38,615 nt of DNA from an uncultured Prevotellaceae bacterium (GTDB lineage Bacteria; Bacteroidota; Bacteroidia; Bacteroidales; Bacteroidaceae): positions 1 to 38,615 of the forward strand of contig CAMYYX010000001.1 of NCBI GenBank assembly GCA_947303695.1, given 5' to 3'. How positions within the stretch are numbered: position 1 is the first letter of the stretch; each line of letters opens with the position of its first letter. Below, piece by piece: positions 7,198-34,788 of this stretch. The notes under the pieces were generated by a model. The model was given only the letters and a program-made list of their open reading frames with translations, had not been told where the DNA came from and did no database searches. A program made the translations under genes and the position numbers.

Positions 7198-7455
7198 TTA
7201 GGTGTTTGCAAAATAAAAGTGAATGTTTTGCGTTATATAGGTAAAAGCATATCTCACGAATTCACAATTCATCATTCATATTGAACATTGCTGCCTATGA
7301 GAGATTTTACACAAGACACTGATTTTGATTCTTTACAACTTGACGGAATGGCACCCATGCATGCCAGCGAGGAAACTCTCAGTTTCATTCGTATGTTTGC
7401 TCAATCTTATCAAGCTCATATTTATTAGGGAGATAATAGGGAGATATTAAGTCAG

Positions 7456-10872: not shown

Positions 10873-10931
10873 GAAATCAAAACTTTTATAAAATAAATCG
10901 ATTTTTGTTTTGTAATTTGCTTCCTTTGTGC

Positions 10932-10939
10932 TATCTTTG
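10932..10939 (+). promoter_or_regulatory. Candidate -7 box TATCTTTG
   Basis: TATCTTTG matches TAnnTTTG and lies about 30 nt upstream of the ATG at 10969. Confidence 0.45.
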
Positions 10940-10968
10940 CAGTTCATAGAATTAATATCTGGTTGAAT

Positions 10969-11718: not shown

Positions 11719-11721
11719 AGC

Positions 11722-14712: not shown

Positions 14713-14716
14713 TTCA

Positions 14717-15421
14717 ATGTACACACTCTATTCCTTCCTCATCGCCACCCCTCTCTTCCTCATCGCCACCATCATCATTGGTCTGTTGGTGTCCATCACT
14801 GCCTTGTTTGGACTGAAAACACTCCCACATCGCATCCTTCCCATGTGTTGGGGACGCATCTGTTGCTGGCTCTATCTGCTTCCTGTCCATGTGGAAGGGC
14901 GTGAGCAGCTCGATACGAAGCAGTCATATATCTTTGTAGCCAACCACCAAGGCTATCTCGACATCCTGCTGATGTACGGTTATCTTGGTCATAGCTTTAA
15001 GTGGATGATGAAAGAATACCTCAAAAAAATGCCTATTGTCGGTCAAGCATGTATGATTAGTCGTCAGATATTCGTGGGAGATAGCTTGGCATCCATTCAG
15101 CAAGCAGTGAAGAATGCACGTAAAACGCTACAGGGTGGAATGTCTATGTCCATCTTTCCAGAAGGAACACGTAGTTATGATGGTACGATGGGAACTTTCA
15201 AACGCGGAGCTTTCATGTTGGCCAATGAGATTGGACTGCCCATCGTGCCCATCACCATCAATGGTTCGTTCCGAGCCTTTAGCCGTAAGGATAAGAGTGT
15301 GACGCGTGAAACACTTTCGCTTATCATTCATGAGCCCATTACTCCCGACTATTACCAGCATAAACCGACCAAGGTGTTCATGCAGGAAGTGCATGATATC
15401 ATCAATTCGAGTCTCGATTAA
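14717..15421 (+). CDS. plsC: 1-acyl-sn-glycerol-3-phosphate acyltransferase (PlsC family)
   Basis: It has the HX4D motif NHQGYLD and the FPEGTRS motif, with an N-terminal TM helix. I start it at MYTLYSF (ATG 14717), 4 nt after the upstream stop. Confidence 0.85.
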   Translation: MYTLYSFLIATPLFLIATIIIGLLVSITALFGLKTLPHRILPMCWGRICCWLYLLPVHVEGREQLDTKQSYIFVANHQGYLDILLMYGYLGHSFKWMMKEYLKKMPIVGQACMISRQIFVGDSLASIQQAVKNARKTLQGGMSMSIFPEGTRSYDGTMGTFKRGAFMLANEIGLPIVPITINGSFRAFSRKDKSVTRETLSLIIHEPITPDYYQHKPTKVFMQEVHDIINSSLD

Positions 15422-20769: not shown

Positions 20770-21798
20770 ATGGATGCCCGTTTGAACATATTAGGAATGA
20801 ATACTACTGAGCTTCAAGCGATTGTCTTGGAGCTCGGTATGCCTAAGTTTACAGCCAAACAGATTGCTCAGTGGGTGTATCAGAGGCAGGCAACGTCGTT
20901 TGATGAGATGACAAACATCTCAAAGCGACATCGTGACTTGTTGGCTGAACGTTTTGTTGTGGGACGTAAGCCTGCGACTGAGGTGCAGACATCGAAAGAT
21001 GGAACTGTAAAGTACCTGTTTCCTACTGAAGATGGCAAATCAGTTGAGACTGTCTATATTCCTGAAAAAGATCGGGCTACTTTATGTGTATCGTCGCAGG
21101 TAGGCTGCAAGATGAATTGTTTGTTTTGCCAGACTGGCAAACAAGGTTTTCAAGGTAATCTGACGACGGCAGATATTCTGAACCAGATATTTTCAATAGA
21201 ACGGCCAGAATCTCTGACAAATATCGTGTTTATGGGTCAGGGTGAACCACTTGATAATTATGATGCGTTGCTGAAAGCAATCAGCTTGTTGACATCAGCA
21301 GAAGGGTGGGGATGGAGTCCGAAACGTATTACAGTATCGACAGTAGGACTGAAGAAAAACCTGAAACGTTTTATTGAAGAAAGCGAGTGCCATTTGGCCG
21401 TGAGTATGCATTTCCCATTCCATGAGACGCGACTGCAATATATGCCTGCAGAACGTCAGTATGGGATTGAGGAAATCGTAGAACTGCTGAGCCAGTATGA
21501 CTGGAGTCATCAGCGACGCCTTTCATTTGAATACACAATGTTTGATGGTGTCAACGACTCTATGGTGTTTGCCAAGGAAATCGTACGACTGCTTAAGAAT
21601 ATTGATTGTAGGGTGAACTTGATACGTTATCATCGTATTCCAGACATAGAACTCGAAGATACTCCGATGCCAAAGATGGTGGCCTTTCGCGATTATCTTA
21701 CCAAACATGGTGTATATACTACGATCCGTACTTCACGTGGTCAGGATATTGAAGCAGCGTGTGGAATGCTGATAAGTAAAGATAATAGGAAGATATGA
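20770..21798 (+). CDS. rlmN: 23S rRNA/tRNA (adenine-C2)-methyltransferase RlmN (radical SAM)
   Basis: It has the radical-SAM cluster CKMNCLFCQTG, FMGQGEPLDN, and the C-terminal ...DIEAACGML with the catalytic Cys. Confidence 0.9.
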   Translation: MDARLNILGMNTTELQAIVLELGMPKFTAKQIAQWVYQRQATSFDEMTNISKRHRDLLAERFVVGRKPATEVQTSKDGTVKYLFPTEDGKSVETVYIPEKDRATLCVSSQVGCKMNCLFCQTGKQGFQGNLTTADILNQIFSIERPESLTNIVFMGQGEPLDNYDALLKAISLLTSAEGWGWSPKRITVSTVGLKKNLKRFIEESECHLAVSMHFPFHETRLQYMPAERQYGIEEIVELLSQYDWSHQRRLSFEYTMFDGVNDSMVFAKEIVRLLKNIDCRVNLIRYHRIPDIELEDTPMPKMVAFRDYLTKHGVYTTIRTSRGQDIEAACGMLISKDNRKI

Positions 21799-22841
21799 AA
21801 CGATTTGGAAATATATTGATGATGGTGATGGTGGCAGTGATACTTGCCTCCTGTTCCGCTAATTCGGATGTACCGAAGCGCAAGCATGCACGACGTCCAT
21901 TGCTGGTTCCTGCTTCAAGTGGAAACCCTTATGAGGTGATGGTGGTTGCAGAAGACTCCCTATGGAACGGATTTGCAGGGAAGGCTCTTTGGACGGTTTT
22001 AAACAAGGATGTTCCGATGTTGCCTCAACGTGAACCGATGTTTCATGTGAGCCATATTGTGCCTTCACAGTTTAACAGGATTACCAATATTTTTCGTAAC
22101 ATCATCATCTTGAAGACCAATGAATACACCACAAAACCAAAAATCAGTTACGAACGCGATGTGCATTCGATGCCTCAGTTAGTGATGACCATTCAAGGCC
22201 CAACAGCAAATGGAATATCTACCTATATCACCGAACAGACAAAAGCCATTATCCAAAATCTGACAGCCGAGGAAATCAATCGTAATGCCATGCTTTTGGA
22301 GGATGAATTTAACATCGCCTTTTATAGAAAATGTAAGGAAATGTTTGATTGTGAACTGTTTATTCCTCAGGACCTGTTGAAAATGAAAGAGGGTAAGGAC
22401 TTCTTATGGGCTTCTAATGATGGTGTATCGACCATTCAAAGTATCTGTGTTTACAGTTATCCATATGTGTCTGAGAAGGTCTTTACTCATGACAACTATA
22501 TCAAATTACGTGATAAGTTCATGCAGGAAAATATTCCTGGAGAGAAACCGAATCAGTACATGACAACCAATCATGATTATGTGTTGACTCGTCCGATTTC
22601 GGTTATGGGGCGTTATGTGTTGGAGGCTCGCGGTTTTTGGAACGTTAAGAATGATATGATGGGAGGACCGTTCGTTTCACATTCGTCTGTTGATACAATA
22701 AATAATCGTGTTATTGTTGTTGAAGGTTTCGTCTATGCGCCTGAAAAGATGAAACGAACCATGATTCGTCGACTTGAGTCCGCATTATATACGTTAAGAT
22801 TGCCAAGCGCGAAAAACGAAAGTTTGAAAAAAGAAGATTGA
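21795..22841 (+). CDS. Lipoprotein of unknown function (DUF4837-like)
   Basis: MKRFGNILMMVMVAVILASC has a lipobox. It overlaps the rlmN stop codon (ATGA). The family name is from memory of Bacteroidales synteny upstream of pdxA. Confidence 0.6.
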   Translation: MKRFGNILMMVMVAVILASCSANSDVPKRKHARRPLLVPASSGNPYEVMVVAEDSLWNGFAGKALWTVLNKDVPMLPQREPMFHVSHIVPSQFNRITNIFRNIIILKTNEYTTKPKISYERDVHSMPQLVMTIQGPTANGISTYITEQTKAIIQNLTAEEINRNAMLLEDEFNIAFYRKCKEMFDCELFIPQDLLKMKEGKDFLWASNDGVSTIQSICVYSYPYVSEKVFTHDNYIKLRDKFMQENIPGEKPNQYMTTNHDYVLTRPISVMGRYVLEARGFWNVKNDMMGGPFVSHSSVDTINNRVIVVEGFVYAPEKMKRTMIRRLESALYTLRLPSAKNESLKKED

Positions 22842-22847
22842 AATAAT

Positions 22848-23960
22848 ATGAGAAAAATAAAAGTAGGAATCACACATGGTGATGTAAATGGGGTTGGATA
22901 TGAGATTATTCTCAAAACGTTTGAGAATCCAGAGATGCTTGAATTGTGCACACCAATCGTCTATGGTTCTCCGAAGACTGCAACCTATCACCGTAAAGCA
23001 TTTGAGTGCTCAACGAATTTTGTTGTAAAGAATAATGCCCGGGATGCTGATGATAATATGTTGAATGTCATTAATTGTTTCGGTGAAGAAGAGATAAAGA
23101 TTGACTTTGGACAGTCTACACCAGAAGCAGGAAAGGCAGCATATGTATCGTTGGAAAGAGCTTTGGACGATTATCGTAAAGGTAATATTGATGTGTTGGT
23201 AACTGCACCTATCAATAAGCATAACATTCAACGTGATGGTTTCCATTTCCCAGGACATACCGAATATATTGAAGAGAAAGTGGGAGATGGTCATAAAGCA
23301 CTGATGATTTTGATGAATGACTCCTTGCGTGTGGCTCTTGCAACGACCCATCTGCCAATCAGCAAAGTGGCAGGTGCCATCACCAAAGAATTAATTGAAG
23401 AGAAGATCCGCATATTGAACCAATCACTTAAACGTGATTTCCTGATTGACAATCCACGAATTGCTGTACTTGCTTTGAATCCACATTGTGGCGATGGTGG
23501 CCTGATTGGTTCGGAAGAAAAGGATATCATCGTTCCGACGATCGAACACTTATTTGAAGAAGGTGTCAGGTGTTTTGGCCCATATCCAGCAGACGGCTTT
23601 TTCGGCTCTGGCAATTATGTTCATTTTGATGCTATTCTTGCCATGTATCACGATCAGGGATTAGCTCCTTTTAAGTCTTTAGCTATGGAGAACGGTGTGA
23701 ATTTTACAGCAGGACTCCCAATTGTACGAACTTCCCCGGATCATGGTACCGCTTATGATATTGCGGGTAAAGGAATTGCTAAGGAGGATTCGTTCCGTGC
23801 AGCTATCTATACAGCACTTGATGTTGTCCGTAATCGTAGGATTTACGATGAGGCACATGCACATCCTTTGAAGAAACAGTATTATGAGAAGAAGGATGAT
23901 AGTGACAAGCTGAAACTTGATCAGGTCACAGATGAGAATGACATGGGATTGGAATTGTAA
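22848..23960 (+). CDS. pdxA: 4-hydroxythreonine-4-phosphate dehydrogenase
   Basis: Motifs ITHGDVNGVGYEI, FPGHTEY, YHDQGLAPFK and RTSPDHGTAYDIAGKG. Confidence 0.9.
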   Translation: MRKIKVGITHGDVNGVGYEIILKTFENPEMLELCTPIVYGSPKTATYHRKAFECSTNFVVKNNARDADDNMLNVINCFGEEEIKIDFGQSTPEAGKAAYVSLERALDDYRKGNIDVLVTAPINKHNIQRDGFHFPGHTEYIEEKVGDGHKALMILMNDSLRVALATTHLPISKVAGAITKELIEEKIRILNQSLKRDFLIDNPRIAVLALNPHCGDGGLIGSEEKDIIVPTIEHLFEEGVRCFGPYPADGFFGSGNYVHFDAILAMYHDQGLAPFKSLAMENGVNFTAGLPIVRTSPDHGTAYDIAGKGIAKEDSFRAAIYTALDVVRNRRIYDEAHAHPLKKQYYEKKDDSDKLKLDQVTDENDMGLEL

Positions 23961-23965
23961 ATAAA

Positions 23966-25063
23966 GTGAAGAATAAGACTCGAAACATATTTTTTCTCTT
24001 TGGAATTGTAGCCATCATCATCATGATTCTGACGTTCAAAGTCAGTTTCGTGGAAATGTGGAACCATATCAGACATGCTGGCTATTGGATATTTGCAGTG
24101 TTGGGCATGTGGATTGTGTTGTACTTCATGAATGCTTGTACATGGCGAATCATCATCAAAGGAAGCGGCGATTGTCCCGTTCCCTTCTGGAAACTATATA
24201 AGATTACCATCACAGGCTTTGCATTGAACTATGCTACTCCAGCGGGATTGATGGGTGGCGAACCCTACAAGATTATGGAACTGACTCCATATGTAGGTCG
24301 CGAACGTGCTACATCTTCTGTGTTGTTGTTTGCCATGACGCATATCTTTGCTCATTTCTGGTATTGGCTCACAGCTGTTGTTCTCTATGTGCTTTTCGTT
24401 CCGATTGATACCCGTATGGCCATCATCCTGTCTCTCATTGCACTATTTGCATTGGGTGGTATTTATCTCTTTGTGCGAGGATATAAACGAGGAATGGTCG
24501 TGGGGCTGGTGAAGGTAGTAAGCAAGATACCTGGTTGCAAAAACCGGGGCAGACGCTTTTTAGAGACACATGCGGAGGAATTGCGTAATATCGATCGTCA
24601 GATAGCACAGTTGCAAGGACAGAATAAACATAGTTTCTATGGCTCTTTCTGTTTGGAATATGTGGGTAGAGTGCTACAGTCGTTCGAAATCTTCTTTATG
24701 TTACGTTTGGTGGATGTACAGGGAACGATGCCACAGTTGTTTATGTATTCGTTTATCATCCTTGCGTTTACCTCTTTGTTCGCCAATCTGCTGTTCTTTA
24801 TGCCTTTACAGCTGGGCGGACGTGAGGGAGGTTTTGCAATGTCGACTGTTCAGATGAAGATGACTGGTGCTGCAGGAGTATTATTGACGTTGAAGGAAGC
24901 GATGACGATAGCCGTATTCATCTCTATCATTTGCAGATTGCGAGAGTTGGTATGGACATGTATCGGAATGCTGTTGATGAAGGTGGGAACGAAAGTGAAA
25001 AGTAGTGACAGTAGTGAGAAAGTAGTGACAGGAGCGTCATACGATACGAAGCATTTAAGCTAA
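23966..25063 (+). CDS. Polytopic membrane protein, lysylphosphatidylglycerol-synthase-TM / flippase-like family (UPF0104)
   Basis: It has about 8 hydrophobic helices and the family-typical ...TPAGLMGGEPYKI... loop. The start is a GTG at 23966, 5 nt after pdxA, and is uncertain. Confidence 0.7.
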   Translation: MKNKTRNIFFLFGIVAIIIMILTFKVSFVEMWNHIRHAGYWIFAVLGMWIVLYFMNACTWRIIIKGSGDCPVPFWKLYKITITGFALNYATPAGLMGGEPYKIMELTPYVGRERATSSVLLFAMTHIFAHFWYWLTAVVLYVLFVPIDTRMAIILSLIALFALGGIYLFVRGYKRGMVVGLVKVVSKIPGCKNRGRRFLETHAEELRNIDRQIAQLQGQNKHSFYGSFCLEYVGRVLQSFEIFFMLRLVDVQGTMPQLFMYSFIILAFTSLFANLLFFMPLQLGGREGGFAMSTVQMKMTGAAGVLLTLKEAMTIAVFISIICRLRELVWTCIGMLLMKVGTKVKSSDSSEKVVTGASYDTKHLS

Positions 25064-25068
25064 ATAAA

Positions 25069-25764
25069 ATGAAATACGGGATATTGGCAGCAGGTGAGGG
25101 GTCACGATTGGCTCAAGAGGGAATAGCGGTTCCCAAGCCTTTGGTGACATTAAATGGTGAAGTGATGATTGACCGTCTGATACGTATATTCCATGAGAAT
25201 GATGCAGATGAGATAGTCATTATCACTAACGACCTGACTCAGCAGACTCAACAACATATCCGACAGTTGCAACAAACGGATTCGCGAATCAGACTTATCG
25301 TTAAAACCACACCCAGTTCCATGCATAGTTTCTACGAACTGCATGCTGCGCTGGGAACAGGTAAGTTCTGTCTGACAACCGTCGATACGATATTCCGCGA
25401 AGATGAGTTCAAGGAGTACATACGCGAGTTCAAGGAAATGGAGGGAGACGGTCTGTTAGCTGTGACAGATTTTGTGGACGATGAAAAACCTTTGTATATC
25501 GCTGCTGATGAGCAGATGCGGATTACAGGGTTTTATGATGAACGACGTGAAGACACGAACTATATCTCCGGCGGGATTTATGGTTTGACAGATACTGCGT
25601 TTCCTACCCTCGAACGATGTATCGATGAGGGGATGTCGAGAATGCGCAATTTCCAACGTCAGATGGTCGCTGACGGGTTAAGGCTACAAGCCTATCGGTT
25701 TACGAAGATTCTCGATGTGGACCATGCGGCCGATATCAACAAGGCGGAGGACTTTCTCAGATGA
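25069..25764 (+). CDS. Small-molecule-phosphate nucleotidyl(cytidylyl)transferase, LicC/IPCT-like
   Basis: The N-terminal signature MKYGILAAGEGSRL...PKPLV is the (L)AAGxGxRL NTP-transferase loop. The size of 231 aa and the layout resemble LicC and inositol-1-phosphate cytidylyltransferase rather than long sugar-1-P enzymes. Confidence 0.75.
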   Translation: MKYGILAAGEGSRLAQEGIAVPKPLVTLNGEVMIDRLIRIFHENDADEIVIITNDLTQQTQQHIRQLQQTDSRIRLIVKTTPSSMHSFYELHAALGTGKFCLTTVDTIFREDEFKEYIREFKEMEGDGLLAVTDFVDDEKPLYIAADEQMRITGFYDERREDTNYISGGIYGLTDTAFPTLERCIDEGMSRMRNFQRQMVADGLRLQAYRFTKILDVDHAADINKAEDFLR

Positions 25765-26591
25765 ATATCGTTGGAGTCTATAGGGCCAGTCAGTTTTCTC
25801 CTAATATGGAGGGACGCGATGCAGCTATCCTGAATGCTGTAGCTGACCGATTGCGGCAGTCGGTACATGTGATGACATGTGTGCATGAAGAGCAGCTTGC
25901 CAAGACCGATGTGGAAGCTGCTGATATAGTTCTCTCTATGGGACGGTTCGCGAGTACGTTAGATCTCTTGCAAGAGATTGAAGCTGAAGGGGTAAAGGTC
26001 ATCAATTCCTCCATTGCAATTCGTCATTGCGAACGGAAGCGATTCACACAGATACTGATGGACGAAGATGTGCCATTTGCTCAGAGTCATGTGTTTCAAT
26101 CGTCCGACAACATTACATGGGACCTGTTCCCGTGTTGGTTGAAAAAAGGGGAGGGGTATGCCGAAGTGGCCGAAGATGTAGTCTTTGTACGGAATGCAGA
26201 GGAATTGGCTGCTCAGGTCGATCGTATGCGCCAACGAGGCATCGCTACGTTAGTGGTGTCGCAACACTTGGAAGGTGACCTCATAAAGTTCTATGGCGTT
26301 AGAGGGGCAGGGTTCTTCTCTTGGAGTTATGCATCCGATAGACCGAGCAAGTTTGGTAATGAAACCATCAACGGTCAGGCACATGGGTACCGTTTCTCTG
26401 AGAAAGAGTTGCGTGAAATCTGCACTCACGCAGCTACCGTGATAGGTTTGGATGTGTATGGAGGCGATTGTGTAGTCAGCGAAAATGGAACGATTCAATT
26501 GATAGATATAAATGATTGGCCAAGTTTCTCTCAATGCAGGGAACAGGCGGCCGAAATGATAAAAAATATAACGATACATAATGACAAATAA
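25761..26591 (+). CDS. ATP-grasp fold protein, substrate unknown (possibly an ITPK-like inositol-phosphate kinase)
   Basis: It overlaps the upstream stop codon (ATGA). The C-terminal block GLDVYGGDCVVSENGTIQLIDINDWPSF has the ATP-grasp Mg/ATP-site layout (D-x-N followed by aromatic-Pro). Confidence 0.55.
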   Translation: MNIVGVYRASQFSPNMEGRDAAILNAVADRLRQSVHVMTCVHEEQLAKTDVEAADIVLSMGRFASTLDLLQEIEAEGVKVINSSIAIRHCERKRFTQILMDEDVPFAQSHVFQSSDNITWDLFPCWLKKGEGYAEVAEDVVFVRNAEELAAQVDRMRQRGIATLVVSQHLEGDLIKFYGVRGAGFFSWSYASDRPSKFGNETINGQAHGYRFSEKELREICTHAATVIGLDVYGGDCVVSENGTIQLIDINDWPSFSQCREQAAEMIKNITIHNDK

Positions 26592-27534
26592 AGAAAAACT
26601 GCAATCCACCCTCAAGTCAAACGATATTGAGGAGTGGCTTGACTTAAAGATTGTACGCCCGATAGGCTATTGGTGGACGTTACTGTTTCTTAAACTGAAT
26701 GTACATCCTAATACGGTCACGGTGTTGTCCATGATTATCGGAGGTGCAGCGGGTTTCTTCTTGGTGAAGCGAGCCGACACAACAGAAGGTCTTATCTACA
26801 ACATTATAGGTATCCTGTTGGTGATGTGGGCCAATATCTACGATAGCACCGATGGACAGTTGGCACGACTCACGGGCAAGAAGAGCCGTCTGGGACGTAT
26901 CCTCGATGGAGCAGCCGGCGATATATGGTTCCTCTCTATCTATTTCGGATTGGCCATTCGTCTCTGCGACCAGACCATCCCATTCACCAACATGAAGTGG
27001 GGATGGATATCGTTTGCCCTTATGGCAACATCCGGATTCCTCTGTCATGCACGTCAGTGCAATCTTGCTGACTACTACCGTCAGGCACACCTCTTCTTCC
27101 AGAAGGGAGCAGCCAACAGCGAGTTAGACAACTACAAGCAGCAGAAAGCCCTGTACGATGAAGCGAAATGGAGCGACGACTTCATTTGGAAGTTCTTCCT
27201 GCTCACATACGTACGTTACACCAAGATACAGGAAGCACAGACTCCTGAATTCCAGAAACTGATGGCAGCAGTGAAACAAGCCTATCCAAACGATTTGCCA
27301 CAATCACTTCGCGATGATTTCCGTGCTCATAGCCTACCTCTTATCAAGTATGTCAACATGTTGTCGTTCAACACACGTGCTATTGTGCTTTATGTCACTT
27401 GTCTCATCGACATGCCATACCTCTATCCTCTGTTCGAGATATTTGTATTGATGAGCATGTTTTTCTATATGCGCTCATCCCACGAAAAGTTCTGTAAGCA
27501 ATTAAGACAAAATGTTGAAGCAGGAAAGTATTAA
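26581..27534 (+). CDS. CDP-alcohol phosphatidyltransferase family membrane protein
   Basis: The signature YDSTDGQLARLTGKKSRLGRILDGAAGD corresponds to DGx2ARx8Gx3D followed by a displaced final Asp. The protein has multiple TM helices and overlaps the upstream gene by 11 nt. Confidence 0.8.
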   Translation: MTNKEKLQSTLKSNDIEEWLDLKIVRPIGYWWTLLFLKLNVHPNTVTVLSMIIGGAAGFFLVKRADTTEGLIYNIIGILLVMWANIYDSTDGQLARLTGKKSRLGRILDGAAGDIWFLSIYFGLAIRLCDQTIPFTNMKWGWISFALMATSGFLCHARQCNLADYYRQAHLFFQKGAANSELDNYKQQKALYDEAKWSDDFIWKFFLLTYVRYTKIQEAQTPEFQKLMAAVKQAYPNDLPQSLRDDFRAHSLPLIKYVNMLSFNTRAIVLYVTCLIDMPYLYPLFEIFVLMSMFFYMRSSHEKFCKQLRQNVEAGKY

Positions 27535-28237
27535 AGGAATCATTTTCGACTATGGCGGTACACTTGATACGAATGGTGTACATTGGTCAGAGGTTCTTTG
27601 GGAAAAATATCAGCAGGAGCAGATTGCTGTTACCAAGGATCAGTTCCGCGAGAGCTATGTGTATGCAGAGCGTGAACTGGCAAAGAATCCCTACATCAAA
27701 CCAGAACATACATTTATGGATGTTCTTCGTATCAAGACTGATATTGAGACTCGTTATTTAGTTGATAATGGAATGTGGACTGTCAATGAGTTGACTCGTC
27801 GTGCCTCCTACGAACATGTTACCTTAAGATGCTATCAGCATGTGATGGATGTGTTGCAAGCGAGCCGCAAGGTTCTCCATACATTGGCGGAGCATTATCC
27901 AATGGTGTTAGTGAGTAATTTCTATGGTAATATTCACACCGTTCTGCAGGACTTCCAGCTAACGTATTTTAAGGATGTCATTGAATCGTCGGTTGTAGGC
28001 GTTCGTAAACCCGATCCTCAGATTTTTATGATGGGAGTTGAAGCACTAGGCTTAAAGCCGGAAGAGACGGTTGTGATAGGAGACTCATTCTCTAAAGATA
28101 TTTTGCCAACTCGCCAAATCGGATGCCAGACCATTTGGCTGAAAGGACAAGGGTGGGGGAGTGAAGAAGTTGATGAATCGTTGCCGTCACTCATCCTGAC
28201 AGACATCTCGAAACTGCCTGAATACGTACTTAAATAG
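27512..28237 (+). CDS. HAD superfamily (subfamily IA-like) hydrolase
   Basis: Motif I is GIIFDYGGTLD, motif II is VLVSN, motif III is VGVRKPDP and motif IV is VVIGDSFSKDI. It overlaps the upstream gene by 23 nt. Confidence 0.8.
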   Translation: MLKQESIKGIIFDYGGTLDTNGVHWSEVLWEKYQQEQIAVTKDQFRESYVYAERELAKNPYIKPEHTFMDVLRIKTDIETRYLVDNGMWTVNELTRRASYEHVTLRCYQHVMDVLQASRKVLHTLAEHYPMVLVSNFYGNIHTVLQDFQLTYFKDVIESSVVGVRKPDPQIFMMGVEALGLKPEETVVIGDSFSKDILPTRQIGCQTIWLKGQGWGSEEVDESLPSLILTDISKLPEYVLK

Positions 28238-28310
28238 TATGAAAGTCATTAAGAAAGGTCAAAAGGATGAATAATTGGACTGTATTTTTGATACTCAGTA
28301 ATAAAATGAT

Positions 28311-28318
28311 TATCTTTG
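28311..28318 (+). promoter_or_regulatory. Candidate -7 box TATCTTTG for the inositol-phosphate synthase gene
   Basis: TATCTTTG lies about 37 nt upstream of the ATG at 28355. A second TAnnTTTG match (TATTTTTG) is at 28283-28290. Confidence 0.45.
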
Positions 28319-28354
28319 CAAGAAATTTCTAATAAAGGAATATATAAATAAAAA

Positions 28355-29662
28355 ATGGCAAATCAGATAGTAAAACCAGCAGATGGAAGACTTGGCATTA
28401 TGGTCGTTGGACTTGGTGCTGTGGCATCTACGTTGATGACGGGTGTGTTCATGGCGCGTAAGGGTTTGGCAAAACCTGTGGGTTCGTTGATTGAGTATGA
28501 CAAGATTCGAGTGGGAAAAGGGAAAGAAAAGCAATATCTTTCATACAGAGAGATTGTGCCAATTGCTGAATTGAACGATATTGTGTTTGGCGCTTGGGAT
28601 ATTTATCCTGTGGATGCTTATCGTAGTGCCATGTATGCAGAAGTACTGAAGGAGAAAGATATAGAACCCGTAAAAGACGAATTGGAGAAGATTGTCCCGA
28701 TGAAAGCGGCCTTCGACAGGAATTATGCAAAACGATTGGATGGCGACAATGTGATGGAAGCGAAGACCCGTTGGGAGATGGTAGAACAATTGCGTGAGGA
28801 TATTCGTACTTTCAAGCAGAAGAATTGTTGTGCACGTATTGTTGTAGCATGGGCTGCATCTACGGAAATATATGTTCCGTATAATGAATCCGTTCATGGA
28901 TCATTGGCTGCATTGGAAGCTGCCATGAAAGCAGACGACAAAGAGCATGTCGCTCCGTCTATGTGTTATGCCTATGCAGCATTGACCGAAGGTGCTCCGT
29001 TTATCATGGGTGCTCCGAATACGACCGTCGATATTCCTGCTATGTGGGAATTGGCAGAGAAGACCAAGATGCCTATCGCCGGTAAGGATTTCAAGACAGG
29101 TCAGACATTGGTGAAGAGCGGCTTTGCCCCCATTATCGGTACACGTTGTCTGGGACTGAGCGGATGGTTCTCTACGAATATTCTTGGCAATCGTGATGGT
29201 TTGGTATTGGATGAACCGGAAAACTTCCATACGAAGGAAGTCAGCAAGTTGTCTACACTTGAGTCTATCCTCGTTCCTGAGAAACAACCAGACCTCTATA
29301 CCGACTACTATCACAAGGTGCGCATCAACTACTATCCTCCACGTAATGACAATAAGGAGGGGTGGGACAATATTGACATCTTCGGCTGGATGGGTTATCC
29401 GATGCAGATAAAGATTGATTTTCTGTGTCGTGATTCCATTCTCGCAGCACCATTATTATTAGACCTATGTCTGTTTAGCGACCTTGCTGCACGTGCTGGT
29501 CGATATGGCATACAGCGGTTCCTCAGTTTCTATCTCAAAAGTCCGATGCACGACTACACAAAGGGTGAGGTGCCCGTGAATCATCTGTTCCAGCAGTACG
29601 TGATGTTGAAGAATGCGATACGTGAGATGGGTGGATATGAGGCAGATGAGGAGATAGACTAA
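28355..29662 (+). CDS. ino1: myo-inositol-1-phosphate synthase (MIPS)
   Basis: 435 aa, with the Rossmann start GIMVVGLGAVAST, plus ...FKTGQTLVKS..., ...STNILGNRDG... and ...LCRDSILAAPLLLDL..., which are characteristic MIPS blocks. Confidence 0.92.
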   Translation: MANQIVKPADGRLGIMVVGLGAVASTLMTGVFMARKGLAKPVGSLIEYDKIRVGKGKEKQYLSYREIVPIAELNDIVFGAWDIYPVDAYRSAMYAEVLKEKDIEPVKDELEKIVPMKAAFDRNYAKRLDGDNVMEAKTRWEMVEQLREDIRTFKQKNCCARIVVAWAASTEIYVPYNESVHGSLAALEAAMKADDKEHVAPSMCYAYAALTEGAPFIMGAPNTTVDIPAMWELAEKTKMPIAGKDFKTGQTLVKSGFAPIIGTRCLGLSGWFSTNILGNRDGLVLDEPENFHTKEVSKLSTLESILVPEKQPDLYTDYYHKVRINYYPPRNDNKEGWDNIDIFGWMGYPMQIKIDFLCRDSILAAPLLLDLCLFSDLAARAGRYGIQRFLSFYLKSPMHDYTKGEVPVNHLFQQYVMLKNAIREMGGYEADEEID

Positions 29663-29723: not shown

Positions 29724-32321
29724 TTGAAGAGGTCTCTGTTACATATCATCGTTATGCTATTCCTGTCGCTTGGTGCATGTGCCCAGGTGACAGGTGTGGT
29801 TATTGATTCCAAGACCCGCCAACCGATAGATTTTGCGAATGTGTATTATGACGGAACGACAACCGGAGTAACGACAGATGCGAAAGGACGCTTTTCCATT
29901 AAGGAACGTGATGATTGGAAAGTGTTGACCGTATCAGGATTGGGATATGTGACACAAAAAGTCCGTTTGATTGCTGGAAAGAATAAGAATCTGAAGATAT
30001 TGCTTGTAAGTGCTCCTCGTCAGATAGAAGAGGTAACGATTCAGGGACGCCGTACTCGTTATAGTAGGAGAGACAATCCTGCGGTTGAATTGATGAGAAA
30101 GGTAATCGACCATAAGAAATCGTACGATCTTCATCAAAAGGACTTCTTCAATTACACGAAATACGAGAAGATGGTTTTCTCGCTCAACGAGTTCACGGAG
30201 AAAGTGTTTGAGGAGAACGAGATGAAACGCTTTGCTTTCCTCAAAGATCATGTAGAGCGTTGTCCGGAGACCGGTAAACTGATTCTTCCCCTTACAGTCG
30301 ATGAATCTATCTCAGAGCTGTTTTACCGTAAGAGTCCCCACACAGAGAAGTGCATGATAAAGGCACAGAGCAATAAAGGCGTTAACGAATTGGTGAACAC
30401 CGGGGATATCTTAACGAGCGTGTTGAAAGATGTATTTACGGATGTGGATATCTATGAAAACGAATGCCGTTTGTTACAGCATCCATTCAAAAGCCCAATA
30501 GCCAATAGTGCTATCTCGTTTTACAGATATTATATCGAAGATACGTTGATGATTGATGACGATGAGGTCATACAGGTAGAGTTCGGACCGAACAATCCAC
30601 AGGACTTTGGCTTTTCCGGTACGCTTTTTATCTTGGCTGACTCAAGTTATCAAGTGAGGAAGGTTGAACTTCATATTCCGTCTCGTAGTGATGTGAATTT
30701 TGTGGAGAACATGGTTATTTCACAGGATTTCGCAGAATTGCCCACAGGTGAACGTGTTGTTGTGAGTAATGACATGTTGGTCGAATTGAAGCTCGCATCA
30801 TTTTTGAAGAAGTTACAGGTCCAGCGTGTCATCCGGAACAAGAATTATTCATTTGATGAGATTTCCGAAAAGGTCTTTAAGCGGATCAAAGGTTCGGTTT
30901 ACAAAGAACCTGATGCAGAAATGCAAACCGATGATTATTGGAATGAGTATCGTGAGGTGGAACTGACGCGTAGTGAGAGCCAGATGGATACTTTCCTTGA
31001 TCGTTTGCAGAAGGTGAAGGGATTCAAATACTTGATTTTTGGATTCAAGGCGCTTGTTGAAAACTTTGTTGAGACAGGCGATTCCACTCATAACTATGTC
31101 GATATCGGTCCGGTCAACACCATCATTACGAATAACCATTATGACAAGTGGCGTTTTCGTGTGTCTGCGTTGACCAATGCAAATCTCAGTCCGCATCTCT
31201 TTGCAAGTGGTTATGTGGCGTATGGAACCAAGACGCATCATGTGTATGGAAAAGCACAACTCACATATTCGTTCAATAAGAAGGCGTATCTGCCTCGTGA
31301 GTTCCCCATGAACAATCTTTCCATCACGTATCTGAACGATGTGGTGAGTCCGTTTGACAAGTTCATCCCGACCGATAAGGATAACATGTTCTTAGCCCTC
31401 AAGGCAGTAAGTGTGGATCAGTTCAACCATACGAATGAAGTGAAGATAGCATACGACCGCGAGTATCTCAATGGTTTGAAGTTCAATGCTTCGTTCACAC
31501 ACACGAGGAACAGACCTGTCGATGCGCTGTTCTATCAGCCGCTCGATGATGCAGGCGCTCCGGTCAACGACCCTGCAAAGTGGAAGCATAGCATGACTAC
31601 AGCAGAGGCAAAGGCTGCTATTTCTTTCGAACCTGGTGCCGCCTACATCAATACCAAACAGCGTCGAATCAAACTCAATAAAGAGGCTCCGATTATTACT
31701 GTGAGTCACACAATGGGTTTCAACAAGTTGTTGGGTGGTGAGTACGAATACAATGTGACAGAAGGGACAATCTACAAGCGCGTATGGATTCCCAACAGCT
31801 TTGGCAAGATGGACTTTTTGCTGCAAGGAGGTATTCAGTGGAACAAAGTACCGTTCCCATTGCTGATCCATCCTGCTGCCAATCAGTCTTACATCCTCGA
31901 AGACAATACCTTTTCGTTGATTGGTAATCTTGAGTTCCTCAACGACCGCTATCTGTCTTTGATGTATAGTTGGGACCTGAGCGGAAAGCTGTTCAATCGT
32001 ATTCCATTGTTGAGGAAGTTGAAGTGGAGAGAAATGGTTGGTTTGAACGTGCTTTGGGGTACTTTGACCGATAAGAATAATCCAATGAAGACAAACGATA
32101 AGAGTGGGTTGTTCTATTTCCCGGGTCATTTCCAGCCAGATGGTTCGTATGAATGTAATACCGTTGTTATGGACCCTAAGACGCCTTATGTAGAATTACG
32201 TTTGGCAATACACAATATATTGAAAATCGTTCATGTCGAGTATGTTCGACGTTTGACCTATCTTTCTAACCCCAACATCCGAAAATGGGGTATTCGATTA
32301 AAAGTACGTATGAGCTTTTAG
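29724..32321 (+). CDS. Large secreted envelope protein with an N-terminal carboxypeptidase-regulatory-like domain (DUF5686-type, putative OM protein)
   Basis: The signal is MKRSLLHIIVMLFLSLGACAQ (TTG start at 29724). It is followed by VTGVVIDSKTRQPIDFANVYYDGTTTGVTTDAKGRFSI, a CarboxypepD_reg-like fold motif. The C-terminus ...RLKVRMSF ends in Phe. The family name is from memory. Confidence 0.65.
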   Translation: MKRSLLHIIVMLFLSLGACAQVTGVVIDSKTRQPIDFANVYYDGTTTGVTTDAKGRFSIKERDDWKVLTVSGLGYVTQKVRLIAGKNKNLKILLVSAPRQIEEVTIQGRRTRYSRRDNPAVELMRKVIDHKKSYDLHQKDFFNYTKYEKMVFSLNEFTEKVFEENEMKRFAFLKDHVERCPETGKLILPLTVDESISELFYRKSPHTEKCMIKAQSNKGVNELVNTGDILTSVLKDVFTDVDIYENECRLLQHPFKSPIANSAISFYRYYIEDTLMIDDDEVIQVEFGPNNPQDFGFSGTLFILADSSYQVRKVELHIPSRSDVNFVENMVISQDFAELPTGERVVVSNDMLVELKLASFLKKLQVQRVIRNKNYSFDEISEKVFKRIKGSVYKEPDAEMQTDDYWNEYREVELTRSESQMDTFLDRLQKVKGFKYLIFGFKALVENFVETGDSTHNYVDIGPVNTIITNNHYDKWRFRVSALTNANLSPHLFASGYVAYGTKTHHVYGKAQLTYSFNKKAYLPREFPMNNLSITYLNDVVSPFDKFIPTDKDNMFLALKAVSVDQFNHTNEVKIAYDREYLNGLKFNASFTHTRNRPVDALFYQPLDDAGAPVNDPAKWKHSMTTAEAKAAISFEPGAAYINTKQRRIKLNKEAPIITVSHTMGFNKLLGGEYEYNVTEGTIYKRVWIPNSFGKMDFLLQGGIQWNKVPFPLLIHPAANQSYILEDNTFSLIGNLEFLNDRYLSLMYSWDLSGKLFNRIPLLRKLKWREMVGLNVLWGTLTDKNNPMKTNDKSGLFYFPGHFQPDGSYECNTVVMDPKTPYVELRLAIHNILKIVHVEYVRRLTYLSNPNIRKWGIRLKVRMSF

Positions 32322-32351: not shown

Positions 32352-33584
32352 ATGCAAAAAATGAAACACATATTGGTACTTCTCTTGTTGACTTCTTCAG
32401 CATTGACTGTGGGAGCCCAAGAGCCGTTTAACCCCAAGAAAACTATCAAGGAGGTGAAGGCTCAGCTTAAAGCAGAGAAATACCAGCAGGCTGATGATAT
32501 ACTCAGTAAAGCCATGAATGCCAACAAGGAGGCAAAGGACAACGCTGAGTTTCATTATCTGCGTTTGCAATCATTACAGGGACTGGCTACTGCTGAAAAC
32601 CGTAACATGTTCTTGAATACACGTCCCGATACCGCTAAATATTTCACTTATATCAGTCGCATATACGAGTATGGCTTCTCGTGCGATAGTCTTGATCGGA
32701 TTCCTGATGAGAAAGGGAGGGTGCGTCCGGCCTATACATCACACATTGTCAATCTATTGTATGCCTATCGTAATAACATCAAGAGTGCAGGAAAGTACTA
32801 TTATAAGAAAAACAAATTCGATGATGCTTATCGTTTCTTTGATCTCTATTTAACTACGCTTCATCATCCGTTGATTACCGCTGCAAAAGACTACAAAGTC
32901 GACGAAGACACCTTGTCACTTGCCAATCTTGCCGTTTTTGCAGCCTACAATGCGGCTCAATACAAGAATGTCATGAAATACCTACCGATGGCGATGAAAG
33001 ACAGCACGGATTATGCCTTACTCTGCCAGATAGGCAGTAAGTCCAGTATGGAACTCGTTGACACACTTGGAGCAGTCCGTTATCTGCGAGAGGGTTGGAA
33101 GACCGATCCCAAACAGGAGTTTTTCTATATCAACCTGATTGACTACCATGTAGAACGTCAGGAGTATGTTGATGCGATTCGGATTATTGACCAACAGTTG
33201 GAGGTAGAACCGCAGAAACGACTCTTGTGGTATCTGAAAGGAAAGTGTGAACAATGTATTGATAGTGTGGATACAGCTATCGACTGCTTTAACAAGGCCG
33301 TTGAGATTCAGCCCGATGATGCTTTGTCATATAGTAGTTTGGGAGGAATTTATATTGATAAAGCACGACAGGTGTACGATGTCAACAACAATCGTCCTGG
33401 AACCCAGGCTTATACACGTGCGAAGAACAAGCAGAACAAAATCTACAAGCAAGCGCAGGAAGTCTATGAGAATGCACGCAAATATGCACCCGACAACAAG
33501 GCCTTATGGCACGATGGGTTGATGGAAGTCTATTTCAAACTGAACCTTGGTAAAGAACTGAAAGAATTGGAAAATGAACAATAA
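32352..33584 (+). CDS. Secreted TPR-like repeat protein
   Basis: The signal peptide is MQKMKHILVLLLLTSSALTVGAQ. The protein is helical-repeat-like, with TPR-type segments (e.g. LWYLKGKCEQCIDSVDTAIDCFNKAVEIQPDDALSYSSLGGIY). Confidence 0.6.
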   Translation: MQKMKHILVLLLLTSSALTVGAQEPFNPKKTIKEVKAQLKAEKYQQADDILSKAMNANKEAKDNAEFHYLRLQSLQGLATAENRNMFLNTRPDTAKYFTYISRIYEYGFSCDSLDRIPDEKGRVRPAYTSHIVNLLYAYRNNIKSAGKYYYKKNKFDDAYRFFDLYLTTLHHPLITAAKDYKVDEDTLSLANLAVFAAYNAAQYKNVMKYLPMAMKDSTDYALLCQIGSKSSMELVDTLGAVRYLREGWKTDPKQEFFYINLIDYHVERQEYVDAIRIIDQQLEVEPQKRLLWYLKGKCEQCIDSVDTAIDCFNKAVEIQPDDALSYSSLGGIYIDKARQVYDVNNNRPGTQAYTRAKNKQNKIYKQAQEVYENARKYAPDNKALWHDGLMEVYFKLNLGKELKELENEQ

Positions 33585-34788
33585 AATGCGCAATAATTAT
33601 CTTGCTCTCCTTTTGGTGCTGCTGACATGTTCGATGTCAGGAATGGCACAAGAGGAACAGCCTGCCCCACAGCAACAGCTCGATTCGATAGAGGTGTCGT
33701 TGCTCACCTGCACACCAGGCCCTGTGGCATATTCCATGTATGGTCACTCCGCACTTCGTGTGCATAATTTCACGGAGAAGTTGGACCTCGTGTTCAATTA
33801 TGGAGTCTTCGATTATAATGAAGACAATTTCGTCTTCAAGTTCGTCAAAGGCGAAACAGATTATATCTTAGGTGCAGAATATACTGTTGGTTTCTTCGGA
33901 CGTTATGCAGACGAGGAAGCTGGTGTCTTGGAACAGGTGTTGAATCTGACCAATGAGGAAACGAATGCCATCAATGATATTTTGATGGAAAACCTTCAAC
34001 CAGCCAATCGTATGTATCGCTATAATTGGTTATATGATAATTGTACTACACGTGCACGCGATGCACTGGAGAAGGCTGTCCAAGGTGAGATCAGGTACAT
34101 GGCAGCAGACAAGCATCTAACGGCACGGCAGATTCTTAGTCAGTTCAATGCTGTGGATCGTTGGATAGAGTTTGGAGAGAATTTCATCCTTGGATACGAA
34201 CTGGATAATCCGTTAACCAAACGTCAGCAGATGTTTATTCCTTCCTATTACGCTGCAGATGTTGATAGCGCCATCATTCGTCGCAACGATGGTAGGGTAG
34301 TCCCGCTTGTGAAAGAAACGAGGCATCCTCTCCAACAGACGTTAGTTACGAATCCTTCACAGGTCGATTGGCCGATGTGGACCTTTGTCATCCTGTTTGT
34401 CATCATTGCAGTTGTTGGTTTCTTCGAACTGCGACGTGTGAAGACGTTCAAATGGTTGGATGTCGCCTTGTCCTTTATGACAGGATTGGCAGGCATCTTG
34501 GTGGCATTTTTGCACTTTTTCTCTGAGCATGCAGGCGTGAATACCAATATCTTGGTCATTCTCTTCAATCCGTTAGCATTTGCTATCATTCCTTTCGTGA
34601 TTCGACGTAAGACTCAAATCCTGAGTTATGCTATATTGGCAGTATTTGTTGTGTTCTTTATTACTTATTTTGTCGTTCGACAGTACCTTGATCCGGCAAT
34701 TTGGCCTTTGGCATTAACTTTGTTGTTAAGAGTTGTTGTAAATATTTCTGTAAATCACAAAAAAACACTATCTTTGCAAACGAAATAA
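33574..34788 (+). CDS. DUF4105 (Lnb N-terminal domain) protein with a C-terminal multi-TM region
   Basis: A signal peptide is followed by SLLTCTPGPVAYSMYGHSALRV, the DUF4105-type GH..LR block as I recall it. There are 4-5 C-terminal TM helices. It overlaps the TPR gene by 11 nt. Confidence 0.65.
   Translation: MNNKMRNNYLALLLVLLTCSMSGMAQEEQPAPQQQLDSIEVSLLTCTPGPVAYSMYGHSALRVHNFTEKLDLVFNYGVFDYNEDNFVFKFVKGETDYILGAEYTVGFFGRYADEEAGVLEQVLNLTNEETNAINDILMENLQPANRMYRYNWLYDNCTTRARDALEKAVQGEIRYMAADKHLTARQILSQFNAVDRWIEFGENFILGYELDNPLTKRQQMFIPSYYAADVDSAIIRRNDGRVVPLVKETRHPLQQTLVTNPSQVDWPMWTFVILFVIIAVVGFFELRRVKTFKWLDVALSFMTGLAGILVAFLHFFSEHAGVNTNILVILFNPLAFAIIPFVIRRKTQILSYAILAVFVVFFITYFVVRQYLDPAIWPLALTLLLRVVVNISVNHKKTLSLQTK

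Follow-up and report, generated by a model that had tools for sequence, protein, structure and literature searches.

The putative alternative inositol lipid cluster of an uncultured Prevotellaceae bacterium and its constant ATP-grasp partner in Bacteroidales

Gene content and limits of the cluster

We have analysed a stretch of 38,615 nucleotides (here called the window) from an uncultured Prevotellaceae bacterium (GCA_947303695.1, contig CAMYYX010000001.1), focussing on a string of six open reading frames (ORFs), all on the + strand, that ends with the gene for myo-inositol-1-phosphate synthase (MIPS). The region is a gut or rumen Bacteroidales orthologue of the “putative alternative inositol lipid cluster” of Heaver et al., 2022 (PMC9246714). 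A preliminary description, made from the sequence alone, had given the positions of the ORFs, a 5-nt gap, three overlaps and a 117-nt spacer, and the ORF coordinates reproduce all of these exactly: the gap of 5 nt is followed by overlaps of 4 nt (ATGA), 11 nt and 23 nt, and then by 117 nt up to the MIPS gene. The gene families that it had named (MIPS, cytidylyltransferase-like, CDP-alcohol transferase, HAD, ATP-grasp and flippase-like) were supported by Pfam and NCBIfam scans and by a fold search. The features, with the short names used below for gene orders, are:

23966..25063, + strand: LPG_synthase_TM (MprF flippase-domain-like) membrane protein, BT_1521 homologue type (PF03706; 365 aa, GTG start); LPGtm
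25069..25764, + strand: sugar/alcohol-phosphate nucleotidylyltransferase (Pfam NTP_transferase; 231 aa); NTP
25761..26591, + strand: ATP-grasp enzyme of a family without prior description, “hypothetical protein” in public records (fold match; 276 aa); Grasp
26581..27534, + strand: divergent CDP-alcohol phosphotransferase with a long C-terminal extension (PF01066; 317 aa); CDPOH
27512..28237, + strand: HAD-IA hydrolase (Pfam Hydrolase, HAD_2, Hydrolase_like; 241 aa); HAD
28238..28354, + strand: AT-rich spacer of 117 nt, with two TAnnTTTG matches in its sequence (28283-28290 and 28311-28318)
28355..29662, + strand: myo-inositol-1-phosphate synthase (NAD_binding_5 and Inos-1-P_synth; 435 aa); MIPS
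29724..32321, + strand: CarboxypepD_reg and DUF5686 protein, BT_1527 homologue type, with a signal-peptide-like N-terminus (Pfam; 865 aa)

Three co-directional genes join the string from upstream, rlmN (20770-21798), DUF4837 (21795-22841) and pdxA (22848-23960), with a 4-nt overlap and gaps of 6 and 5 nt. Downstream, the DUF5686 gene begins 61 nt past the MIPS gene, and next come a TPR gene, an Lnb-like gene and secA. The tight string thus reaches beyond the six ORFs, and packing alone cannot define the unit. It is defined by conserved synteny, the gene order being kept in 80 species-level genomes, far beyond chance.

The spacer ahead of the MIPS gene may contain an internal promoter. The TAnnTTTG box to which attention had been drawn does lie there (TATCTTTG at 28311-28318, 36 nt ahead of the MIPS ATG), but it carries little evidential weight: the motif has 27 occurrences in the window where 24 +/- 4.6 are expected, so that the box alone proves nothing. 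The spacer between the HAD and MIPS genes is long in the relatives too (median 242 nt). A scan of the window for sigma-70 promoters and terminators, with a model that excludes Bacteroidetes promoters, gave counts at or below the shuffled expectation.

Relationship to the published cluster

Bacteroides and Prevotella species with a MIPS homologue have been described as carrying one of two clusters (PMC9246714). That of B. thetaiotaomicron includes BT_1522, a phosphoinositol dihydroceramide (PI-DHC) synthase, BT_1523, a phosphatidylinositol phosphate (PIP) synthase, and BT_1525, a PgpA-type phosphatase, while the “alternate cluster” has an NTP-transferase, a CDP-alcohol phosphatidyltransferase and a HAD hydrolase adjoining MIPS; LPG-synthase-like and CarboxypepD_reg-like genes are found near both types. 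The same authors proposed for the alternate cluster a Kennedy-like CDP-inositol route, which they declared unconfirmed, with the HAD protein assigned as the PI-DHC synthase. Papers of 2023 and 2025 still refer to the alternative cluster as predicted in silico or as “a variant form”, and our literature searches found no functional study of it later than 2022. The ATP-grasp gene has no occurrence (0) in PMC9246714.

This gene set is what we find in the window. Pfam places an NTP-transferase, a CDP-alcohol transferase and a HAD hydrolase adjoining MIPS, in the order NTP-Grasp-CDPOH-HAD-MIPS that is common to the Bacteroidales loci, and both kinds of neighbour are present, PF03706 at 23966-25063 and PF13715 together with DUF5686 at 29724-32321. 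When PgpA, GtrA, PIP synthase and PAP2 proteins from loci that carry both gene sets (see below) were searched by tblastn against the whole window, the best E-value was 0.17, which gives no gene of the BT_1522, BT_1523 or BT_1525 type. The absence of a PgpA-type phosphatase noted in the preliminary description thus extends to the other B. thetaiotaomicron-type genes. Its statement that a Prevotella-type cluster had been proposed from genomics only matches PMC9246714 and the later papers that call it unvalidated. It had also called the region the best candidate for a new system in the window, and this we withdraw: the cluster, the CDP-inositol logic and the LPG-synthase and CarboxypepD_reg neighbours were already published. 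What is new here is the ATP-grasp partner, the fusion chain, the Dx4D signature of the transferase, the DxGxT motif of the HAD protein and the hybrid clusters.

The nearest relative is an uncultured “Bacteroidaceae bacterium” metagenome-assembled genome, GCA_017529865.1 (L082), reached via a transferase, P0121, that is 94% identical to that of the window. Its gene order is the same throughout (rlmN-DUF4837-pdxA-LPGtm-NTP-Grasp-CDPOH-HAD-MIPS-DUF5686-TPR), with amino acid identities of 74-94%. In Phocaeicola coprophilus DSM 18228 (L017) the order is NTP-Grasp-CDPOH-LPGtm-HAD, which fits the spacing of the B. vulgatus locus tags RS13095/13105/13115; RS13100, skipped between the cited tags, is presumably the ATP-grasp gene. 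The ATP-grasp protein of the window has no exact-sequence record in the databases. It is 80% identical to its L082 counterpart, under the transferase (94%) and over the HAD protein (74%), while in comparison with the two nearest species-representative loci, L001 and L002, it has diverged more than any other product of the cluster (45-49% identity, its neighbours 57-90%).

Conservation and gene fusions in Bacteroidales

To examine related loci we used the ATP-grasp family as bait, with one genome per species, and fetched the best 80 of 594 confirmed hits with 8 kb on either side, locating the genes by tblastn with the window proteins. The taxon labels of these 80 loci were all Bacteroidales or unclassified (Bacteroidaceae, Prevotellaceae, Muribaculaceae, Tannerellaceae, Dysgonomonadaceae, Phocaeicola). 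A gene of the CDP-alcohol transferase family lies downstream of the ATP-grasp gene on the same strand in every one (80/80), directly adjacent in most and at 50 nt or less in 59. The HAD gene is near the ATP-grasp gene in 76/80 and the nucleotidyltransferase gene immediately upstream of it in 71/80, while MIPS is found within 8 kb of the ATP-grasp/transferase pair in 50/80; intergenic gaps within the core have medians of -4 to 21 nt. The link to MIPS that had been drawn from the window is therefore a recurrent one, and the ATP-grasp gene, which had been left without an assigned step, turns out to be no odd passenger but the most constant partner of the transferase. Other genes are less regular: the LPG-synthase-TM gene occurs at variable positions in 20/80 loci (Prevotella-like loci have it ahead of the nucleotidyltransferase gene, Phocaeicola-like ones between those for transferase and HAD) and DUF5686 stands beside the cluster in 6-7/80.

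The strongest evidence for a functional unit comes from gene fusions. Single ORFs joining the nucleotidyltransferase to the ATP-grasp domain (517-540 aa) were found in L025, L066, L076 and L079, and among the top 150 representatives of the ATP-grasp family six proteins of ~500-550 aa that were scanned all carry an N-terminal NTP_transferase domain (6/6), with three more of like length. One representative, P0349 (574 aa), joins the ATP-grasp domain to the CDP-alcohol transferase. Fusions of the transferase to the HAD domain (533-586 aa) occur in L076 and L079, and one has been noted in P. veroralis (PMC9246714). In L076 the entire core is reduced to two polypeptides (6111-7733 and 7730-9490). 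The chain of fusions runs in gene order, NTP::Grasp, Grasp::CDP-OH and CDP-OH::HAD, and this, with the conserved gene order, is why we regard the four enzymes as one unit, probably acting together at the membrane.

Upstream, pdxA is found in 57/80 loci, which come from several Bacteroidales families, and immediately precedes the cluster there; rlmN and DUF4837 in turn lie ahead of pdxA in L017, in the window and in the nearest relative of the window. The chromosomal setting of the cluster is thus conserved, with nothing evident that would connect it functionally to vitamin B6 synthesis. Another recurrent neighbour, in 12/80 loci, is a GlsA/OlsF-like acyltransferase. A FucP-like MFS transporter (TIGR00885, 289 bits) is present in six Phocaeicola-type loci, L017 (11538-13828), L009, L016, L018, L041 and L077, accompanied in 5/6 by a PfkB-family sugar kinase; they are placed between the HAD and MIPS genes or beside the cluster and could, speculatively, form an uptake-plus-kinase route for inositol salvage. 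In L043, a locus without a nearby nucleotidyltransferase gene, a CTP synthase (pyrG) gene or fragment of one lies at 11224-12351, ~700 nt past the HAD gene, which may be a coincidence.

Hybrid loci

In 5/80 loci (L015, L045, L046, L067 and L071) a B. thetaiotaomicron-type cassette is inserted between the ATP-grasp and transferase genes of the alternative cluster. It comprises PgpA (absent in L071), GtrA, a BT_1523-like PIP synthase and a PAP2 enzyme, with the GlsA/OlsF-like acyltransferase in 3/5, and all the genes are intact and on one strand. In L045, where the cassette covers 8870-12412, the PAP2 protein reaches the cut-off of NF052609, “phosphoinositol dihydroceramide synthase” (482.7 against 480 bits). 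No nucleotidyltransferase gene was found within 8 kb in 4/5 of these hybrids. Muribaculaceae-type loci without the cassette are mixed in among them, at 65-77% identity. The existence of the hybrids means that the two gene sets are not mutually exclusive. The hybrids could be long-lived intermediates, one cassette replacing the other at a single chromosomal site; otherwise the alternative module would have a function that the B. thetaiotaomicron pathway lacks.

The CDP-alcohol transferase

The transferase belongs to PF01066 (35.3 bits against a gathering threshold of 22; E 1.9e-8) and has the signature D88-x2-D91-G-x2-A-R96-x8-G105-x3-D109-x4-D114. Compared with the canonical D(x)2DG(x)2AR(x)8G(x)3D(x)3D every element is kept except the last spacing, and the final acidic residue is at +5 in 107/108 family members (Dx4D in 101, Dx4E in 6), whereas the B. 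thetaiotaomicron-type PIP synthase of the hybrid locus L045 has the canonical Dx3D (+4). The best NCBIfam matches are archaetidylinositol-phosphate and PIP synthases, all far under cut-off: the window protein reaches 29.3 bits of the 350 required by NF052561 and 28.9 of the 170 required by NF045883, the two PIP-synthase equivalogs on which the hybrid-locus PIP synthase, by contrast, scores 255 and 121 bits.

For a ranking of possible donors the family profile was searched against all PDB sequences. AF2299 came first (E 4.9e-10), followed by CPT1/CEPT1 (2e-5), IPCT-DIPPS, the fused inositol-1-phosphate cytidylyltransferase (IPCT) and transferase (1e-3), the PIP synthases (1.6e-3 to 1.8e-2, with MtPgsA1 at 4e-3), PssA (0.07) and PgsA (0.8). 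Users of soluble CDP-alcohols thus outrank users of CDP-diacylglycerol, which is modest evidence given that the E-values are all weak. The structural model (pLDDT 91.5) also has AF2299 as its best fold match, at a TM-score of 0.47, all matches being <0.5 and not discriminating the donor. We propose that the enzyme is a CDP-inositol(-phosphate):ceramide/diacylglycerol (DAG) inositolphosphotransferase.

The ATP-grasp enzyme

The ATP-grasp protein of the window matches no Pfam family. Its AlphaFold model (pLDDT 92.5) gave Ddl, LysX/ArgX and RimK as top Foldseek matches (E ~1e-14, TM-score ~0.7), and the invariant residues of the family, K128, K176, D236, D249 and N251, align to the ATP and Mg ligands of RimK. 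On model and alignment it is a genuine ATP-grasp enzyme, and probably an active one. The family counts >2000 database proteins (547 members at E<=1e-30 among 50%-identity representatives); those named by their sources are “hypothetical”, and hardly any protein of the family contains a Pfam domain.

Two ATP-grasp families, ITPK1 and PPIP5K, phosphorylate inositol phosphates, and the preliminary description had suggested a check against the Ins134_P3_kin family. Among 27 family members there was no Pfam hit, PF05770 (Ins134_P3_kin) included; the profile matched ITPK1 entries in the PDB at E 0.014-0.086 over stretches of 45-50 residues only, and ITPK1 was absent from the top 50 fold matches of the model. 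We have therefore rejected membership in the ITPK1/Ins134_P3_kin family and keep ITPK1 as a functional analogy. That the enzyme might be an inositol-phosphate kinase is a weak guess from the ITPK1/PPIP5K precedent and the insignificant similarity to ITPK1. Two other roles were considered. A CDP-ceramide donor, with the ATP-grasp enzyme as ceramide kinase, is kept as unlikely, there being no precedent for a lipid kinase with this fold. A Grasp/transferase pair making serine-glycine lipodipeptide or Lipid 1256-type lipids was dropped, as B. thetaiotaomicron and B. fragilis have those lipids and were described without the cluster, and the linkage to MIPS is tight.

The nucleotidyltransferase, the HAD hydrolase and the remaining proteins

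The nucleotidyltransferase (Pfam NTP_transferase, 52 bits, 1.2e-13) has as its second-best NCBIfam match the IPCT half of IPCT/DIPPS (NF041135; 5.6e-13, 48.7 bits against a cut-off of 580). G9-x-G11-S-R13, K23 and D106 are invariant, so that both the catalytic Asp and the GxGxR...K signature are present. Over its full length the family profile aligns to 4JD0 (5e-8), the inositol-1-phosphate cytidylyltransferase of T. maritima (PMC12275187), and it also finds the A. fulgidus IPCT 2XME (1.7e-5) and LicC (1e-5). From these matches the protein may be a CTP:inositol-phosphate cytidylyltransferase.

The HAD protein (54 bits, 3e-14; Pfam Hydrolase, HAD_2 and Hydrolase_like) is also above the threshold of PGP_phosphatase, the Gep4 family (21.9 against 20.4 bits). 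Its motif I, with the nucleophile D13, reads F-D13-Y-G15-G-T17-x-D19, DxGxT and not DxDxT; the Gly at Asp+2, the place of the general acid, is invariant in 26 aligned members and at least 98% conserved across 75, and motifs II to IV are kept (S135/N136, K166, D191, D196). Active phosphatases with Gly at this position are known, E. coli YihX among them. The HAD reaction moves a phosphoryl group via an aspartyl-phosphate intermediate, and not a phosphodiester-linked head group, and because of this chemistry a phosphatase appears much more likely than the PI-DHC synthase role given to the protein in PMC9246714. It would strip a residual phosphate from the lipid product, or supply the acceptor.

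MIPS is unambiguous (NAD_binding_5, 334 bits, 1.2e-99; Inos-1-P_synth, 104 bits, 8.4e-30), with 79-91% identity to most Bacteroidales copies and 56-64% in some lineages. Catalytic residues are conserved in all five enzymes, so that they look competent. The LPG_synthase_TM protein (PF03706, 73 bits, 3e-20, residues 13-317) has the transmembrane region of MprF only, with no aminoacyl-phosphatidylglycerol synthase domain in its 365 aa, and may translocate the inositol lipid. The DUF5686 protein (Pfam DUF5686 2e-56, CarbopepD_reg_2 4e-17) is an accessory neighbour.

Other genes of the window

Two genes past the cluster, between the TPR protein and secA, an Lnb-like protein (Lnb_N and 5TMH_Lnb) is encoded at 33574-34788; Lnb is the Bacteroides lipoprotein N-acyltransferase family. 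A dihydroorotase-like amidohydrolase at 11722-13062 is interrupted by an in-frame TAG at 12544-12546 (...MFTTED*DLLGTKIKCNP...), so that the gene either bears a nonsense mutation, has become a pseudogene or was misread in sequencing. Upstream of the cluster there are also a methionine-synthase B12 activation domain protein that stands alone (Met_synt_B12, 13013-13795) and a PlsC-type acyltransferase (14645-15421), neither of them linked to the cluster in other loci.

A possible pathway and its alternatives

Organisms that carry only the alternative cluster make inositol sphingolipids. B. vulgatus and P. veroralis, which have it and no BT_1522/23/25 homologues, both make PI-DHC (PMC9246714), as does P. 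copri, another carrier (PMC10865984). In B. vulgatus ceramide phosphoinositol (Cer-PI) was found and diacyl phosphatidylinositol (diacyl-PI) was undetectable, whereas B. thetaiotaomicron and B. ovatus show both (PMC10056535), which fits a direct transfer to ceramide. There is also a precedent in Caulobacter, where CpgD, a cytidylyltransferase of the same fold, makes a CDP-activated sphingolipid head group (PMC12275187). We lean, with some reserve, towards the view that the cluster builds the phosphoinositol head group of dihydroceramide, and possibly of DAG, by a Kennedy-like CDP-inositol route. Such a route would most likely need neither the PIP synthase/PgpA pair of B. thetaiotaomicron nor an AUR1-like synthase. 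The CDP-inositol idea, already present in the preliminary description, fits the ranking of the transferase profile and the full-length alignment of the nucleotidyltransferase to 4JD0.

The steps could be as follows. MIPS, going by homology, would convert glucose-6-phosphate to inositol-3-phosphate. The ATP-grasp enzyme would then carry out an ATP-dependent step on the head-group precursor, for which phosphorylation at D-1, yielding Ins(1,3)P2, is our preferred though weak guess. The nucleotidyltransferase would produce a CDP-activated inositol(-phosphate), from which the divergent CDP-alcohol transferase would pass phosphoinositol(-phosphate) to ceramide or DAG in the membrane. The HAD phosphatase would finally clear the leftover phosphate. 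Where a CDP-alcohol transferase leaves a phosphomonoester on its product, a phosphatase acts next, as in PgsA/Pgp, PIP synthase/phosphatase, DIPPS/phosphatase and Pgs1/Gep4, and it is from this rule and from the fusion of the HAD domain to the transferase that we would place the last step. More speculatively, the LPG-synthase-TM and DUF5686 proteins may move the lipid outward.

The part of this scheme in which the MIPS product receives another phosphate from the ATP-grasp enzyme, a CDP-inositol-phosphate is formed and the HAD enzyme removes the spare phosphate is a guess by analogy, and we consider it unlikely as it stands; it would account for the order of the fusions and give the usual D-1 linkage. 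Against it, the closest relatives of the ATP-grasp enzyme are ligases, and loci lacking the nucleotidyltransferase are not readily accommodated. Only slightly less doubtful in our opinion is the wider proposal that both enzymes are obligatory in an undescribed activation pathway, in which Ins-3-P would receive a second phosphate, be converted to CDP-inositol-phosphate, be transferred directly to ceramide by the Dx4D transferase and be dephosphorylated there. If true, sphingolipids would have their own counterpart of the PIP route, one that fixes the stereochemistry of the linkage, and it would be non-redundant with the B. thetaiotaomicron type, explaining the hybrids.

Several observations weigh against the CDP-inositol route. 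In its plain form it has no use for an ATP-grasp enzyme or for a phosphatase, although conservation is higher for these two than for the nucleotidyltransferase. The latter does not adjoin the ATP-grasp gene in 9/80 loci (L072 has one ~2 kb downstream, L054 ends at a contig edge and the rest include 4/5 hybrids), and three loci hold the Grasp-CDPOH pair only, flanked by unrelated genes on the opposite strand. In the profile search with the nucleotidyltransferase, HddC and RmlA-type sugar-1-phosphate enzymes outscore 4JD0, 2XME and 4MND, which means that its substrate is not readable from sequence. The ATP-grasp enzyme itself has ligases (Ddl, RimK, LysX, TTL, ATPgrasp_ST) as its closest folds and as its weak Pfam matches. 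In the Phocaeicola-type loci the PfkB kinase and MFS transporter could already cover inositol salvage. Hybrids that have PgpA, a PIP synthase and a genuine PI-DHC synthase as well speak for a module that does more than duplicate the B. thetaiotaomicron route. Finally, we found no published assay of any enzyme of the alternative cluster.

One alternative is that the transferase works like a PIP synthase, using CDP-diacylglycerol and inositol-3-phosphate to give PIP, with the HAD protein as the PIP phosphatase (an analogue of PgpA/BT_1525 or of yeast Gep4), and the nucleotidyltransferase and ATP-grasp enzyme serving some other step, e.g., towards a ceramide-linked product. The fusions of transferase and HAD domains and their co-occurrence in 76/80 loci do resemble synthase-phosphatase pairs, the HAD protein passes the threshold of the mitochondrial PGP-phosphatase family, the best NCBIfam matches of the transferase, however far under cut-off, are synthases of this kind, and several loci keep the module without a nearby nucleotidyltransferase. 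However, synthases using CDP-diacylglycerol rank under AF2299, CPT1 and DIPPS in the profile; neither the window nor the alternative-only loci contain an AUR1/PAP2-type PI-DHC synthase, yet PI-DHC is made; diacyl-PI is undetectable in B. vulgatus; and a linked or fused nucleotidyltransferase and ATP-grasp enzyme would be left without a role. We hold this explanation to be improbable.

Coexistence with the B. thetaiotaomicron-type pathway would be explained if the ATP-grasp, transferase and HAD trio were a non-redundant modifier, adding an element (a second phospho-alcohol, or a substituent ligated by the ATP-grasp enzyme) to the head group of the inositol lipid or to another envelope molecule. 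The nesting of the cassette between intact ATP-grasp and transferase genes in the hybrids, the acyltransferase in 12/80 loci and the ligases among the nearest ATP-grasp relatives, with weak matches to the sugar-transfer-associated ATPgrasp_ST, could all be read in this way. It is, nevertheless, a rather remote prospect, as alternative-only species without B. thetaiotaomicron-type genes make plain PI-DHC, for which this cluster is the only MIPS-linked candidate, and in the literature examined we found no modified inositol lipid reported for these species. A third alternative, that the nucleotidyltransferase, a DIPPS-like transferase and the phosphatase make a soluble phosphodiester such as di-myo-inositol phosphate (DIP) or a glycerophospho-inositol-type solute, as in hyperthermophiles, seems to us very improbable: AF2299 and IPCT-DIPPS are the closest solved relatives of the transferase, the nucleotidyltransferase resembles IPCTs and the DIP pathway needs a phosphatase, but the hosts are mesophilic gut or rumen Bacteroidales, genes related to lipids accompany the cluster (LPG-synthase-TM, acyltransferase, B. 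thetaiotaomicron-type cassette), DIP synthesis has no counterpart of the ATP-grasp enzyme and organisms with only this cluster make inositol-phosphoceramide, so that the DIP-like solute mentioned in the preliminary description is unlikely.

Comparison with known systems

Inositol sphingolipids of gut Bacteroidales affect capsule expression, resistance to antimicrobial peptides and host fitness (PMC9246714), and the alternative cluster is the commoner form in Prevotella. If its chemistry differs from every known route to phosphatidylinositol (PI) or inositol-phosphoceramide, it would represent a new way of attaching a polyol phosphate to ceramide, and might then be a selective target in Prevotella-rich microbiomes. 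Experiments are sharpened by the invariant and unannotated ATP-grasp partner, the four-enzyme fusion chain and the coexistence with the B. thetaiotaomicron-type pathway.

The cluster is like the PI pathway of B. thetaiotaomicron (BT_1522-BT_1526) and mycobacteria in starting from MIPS, in the PI-DHC end product of its hosts and in its flanking genes, and in the hybrids the two share a chromosomal string. It is unlike it in that the transferase of the window fails the PIP-synthase models and has Dx4D, there is no PgpA and no PAP2 synthase, and a nucleotidyltransferase and an ATP-grasp enzyme are added. With the IPCT/DIPPS and AF2299 systems of hyperthermophiles it has in common an enzyme of the cytidylyltransferase fold genetically coupled to a CDP-alcohol transferase, AF2299 as best match and a phosphatase that ends the pathway. 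The genes of the window, however, are separate, score 48.7 and 19.2 bits against a family cut-off of 580, have a likely lipid acceptor and an extra ATP-grasp enzyme, and come from mesophilic hosts.

The eukaryotic Kennedy pathway and the insect CDP-ethanolamine:ceramide phosphotransferase offer another parallel, namely activation of an alcohol with CDP and then transfer to DAG or ceramide. Among structural relatives of the transferase CPT1/CEPT1 come second, and the kinase, cytidylyltransferase and transferase of the Kennedy pathway would correspond to Grasp, NTP and CDPOH if the ATP-grasp enzyme were a kinase; this kinase, though, would have the ATP-grasp and not the choline-kinase fold, and the cytidylyltransferase has the fold of sugar-1-phosphate nucleotidyltransferases. 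Caulobacter CpgD, a phosphoglycerate cytidylyltransferase that serves ceramide diphosphoglycerate (PMC12275187), is similar in providing a CDP-activated donor of a sphingolipid head group with an IMPCT (4JD0)-like fold. It differs in head group, transferase and phylum, and no ATP-grasp, HAD or CDP-alcohol transferase partner has been described there.

It is with the alternative cluster of Heaver et al. that the agreement is complete: the genes, the flanks, the host group and the lack of BT_1522/23/25 homologues are the same, nothing essential differs, and the window is a member. Where we depart from the treatment in PMC9246714 is in finding the ATP-grasp enzyme to be an invariant partner, the HAD protein to be phosphatase-like, and hybrids to exist between two clusters that were treated there as alternatives.

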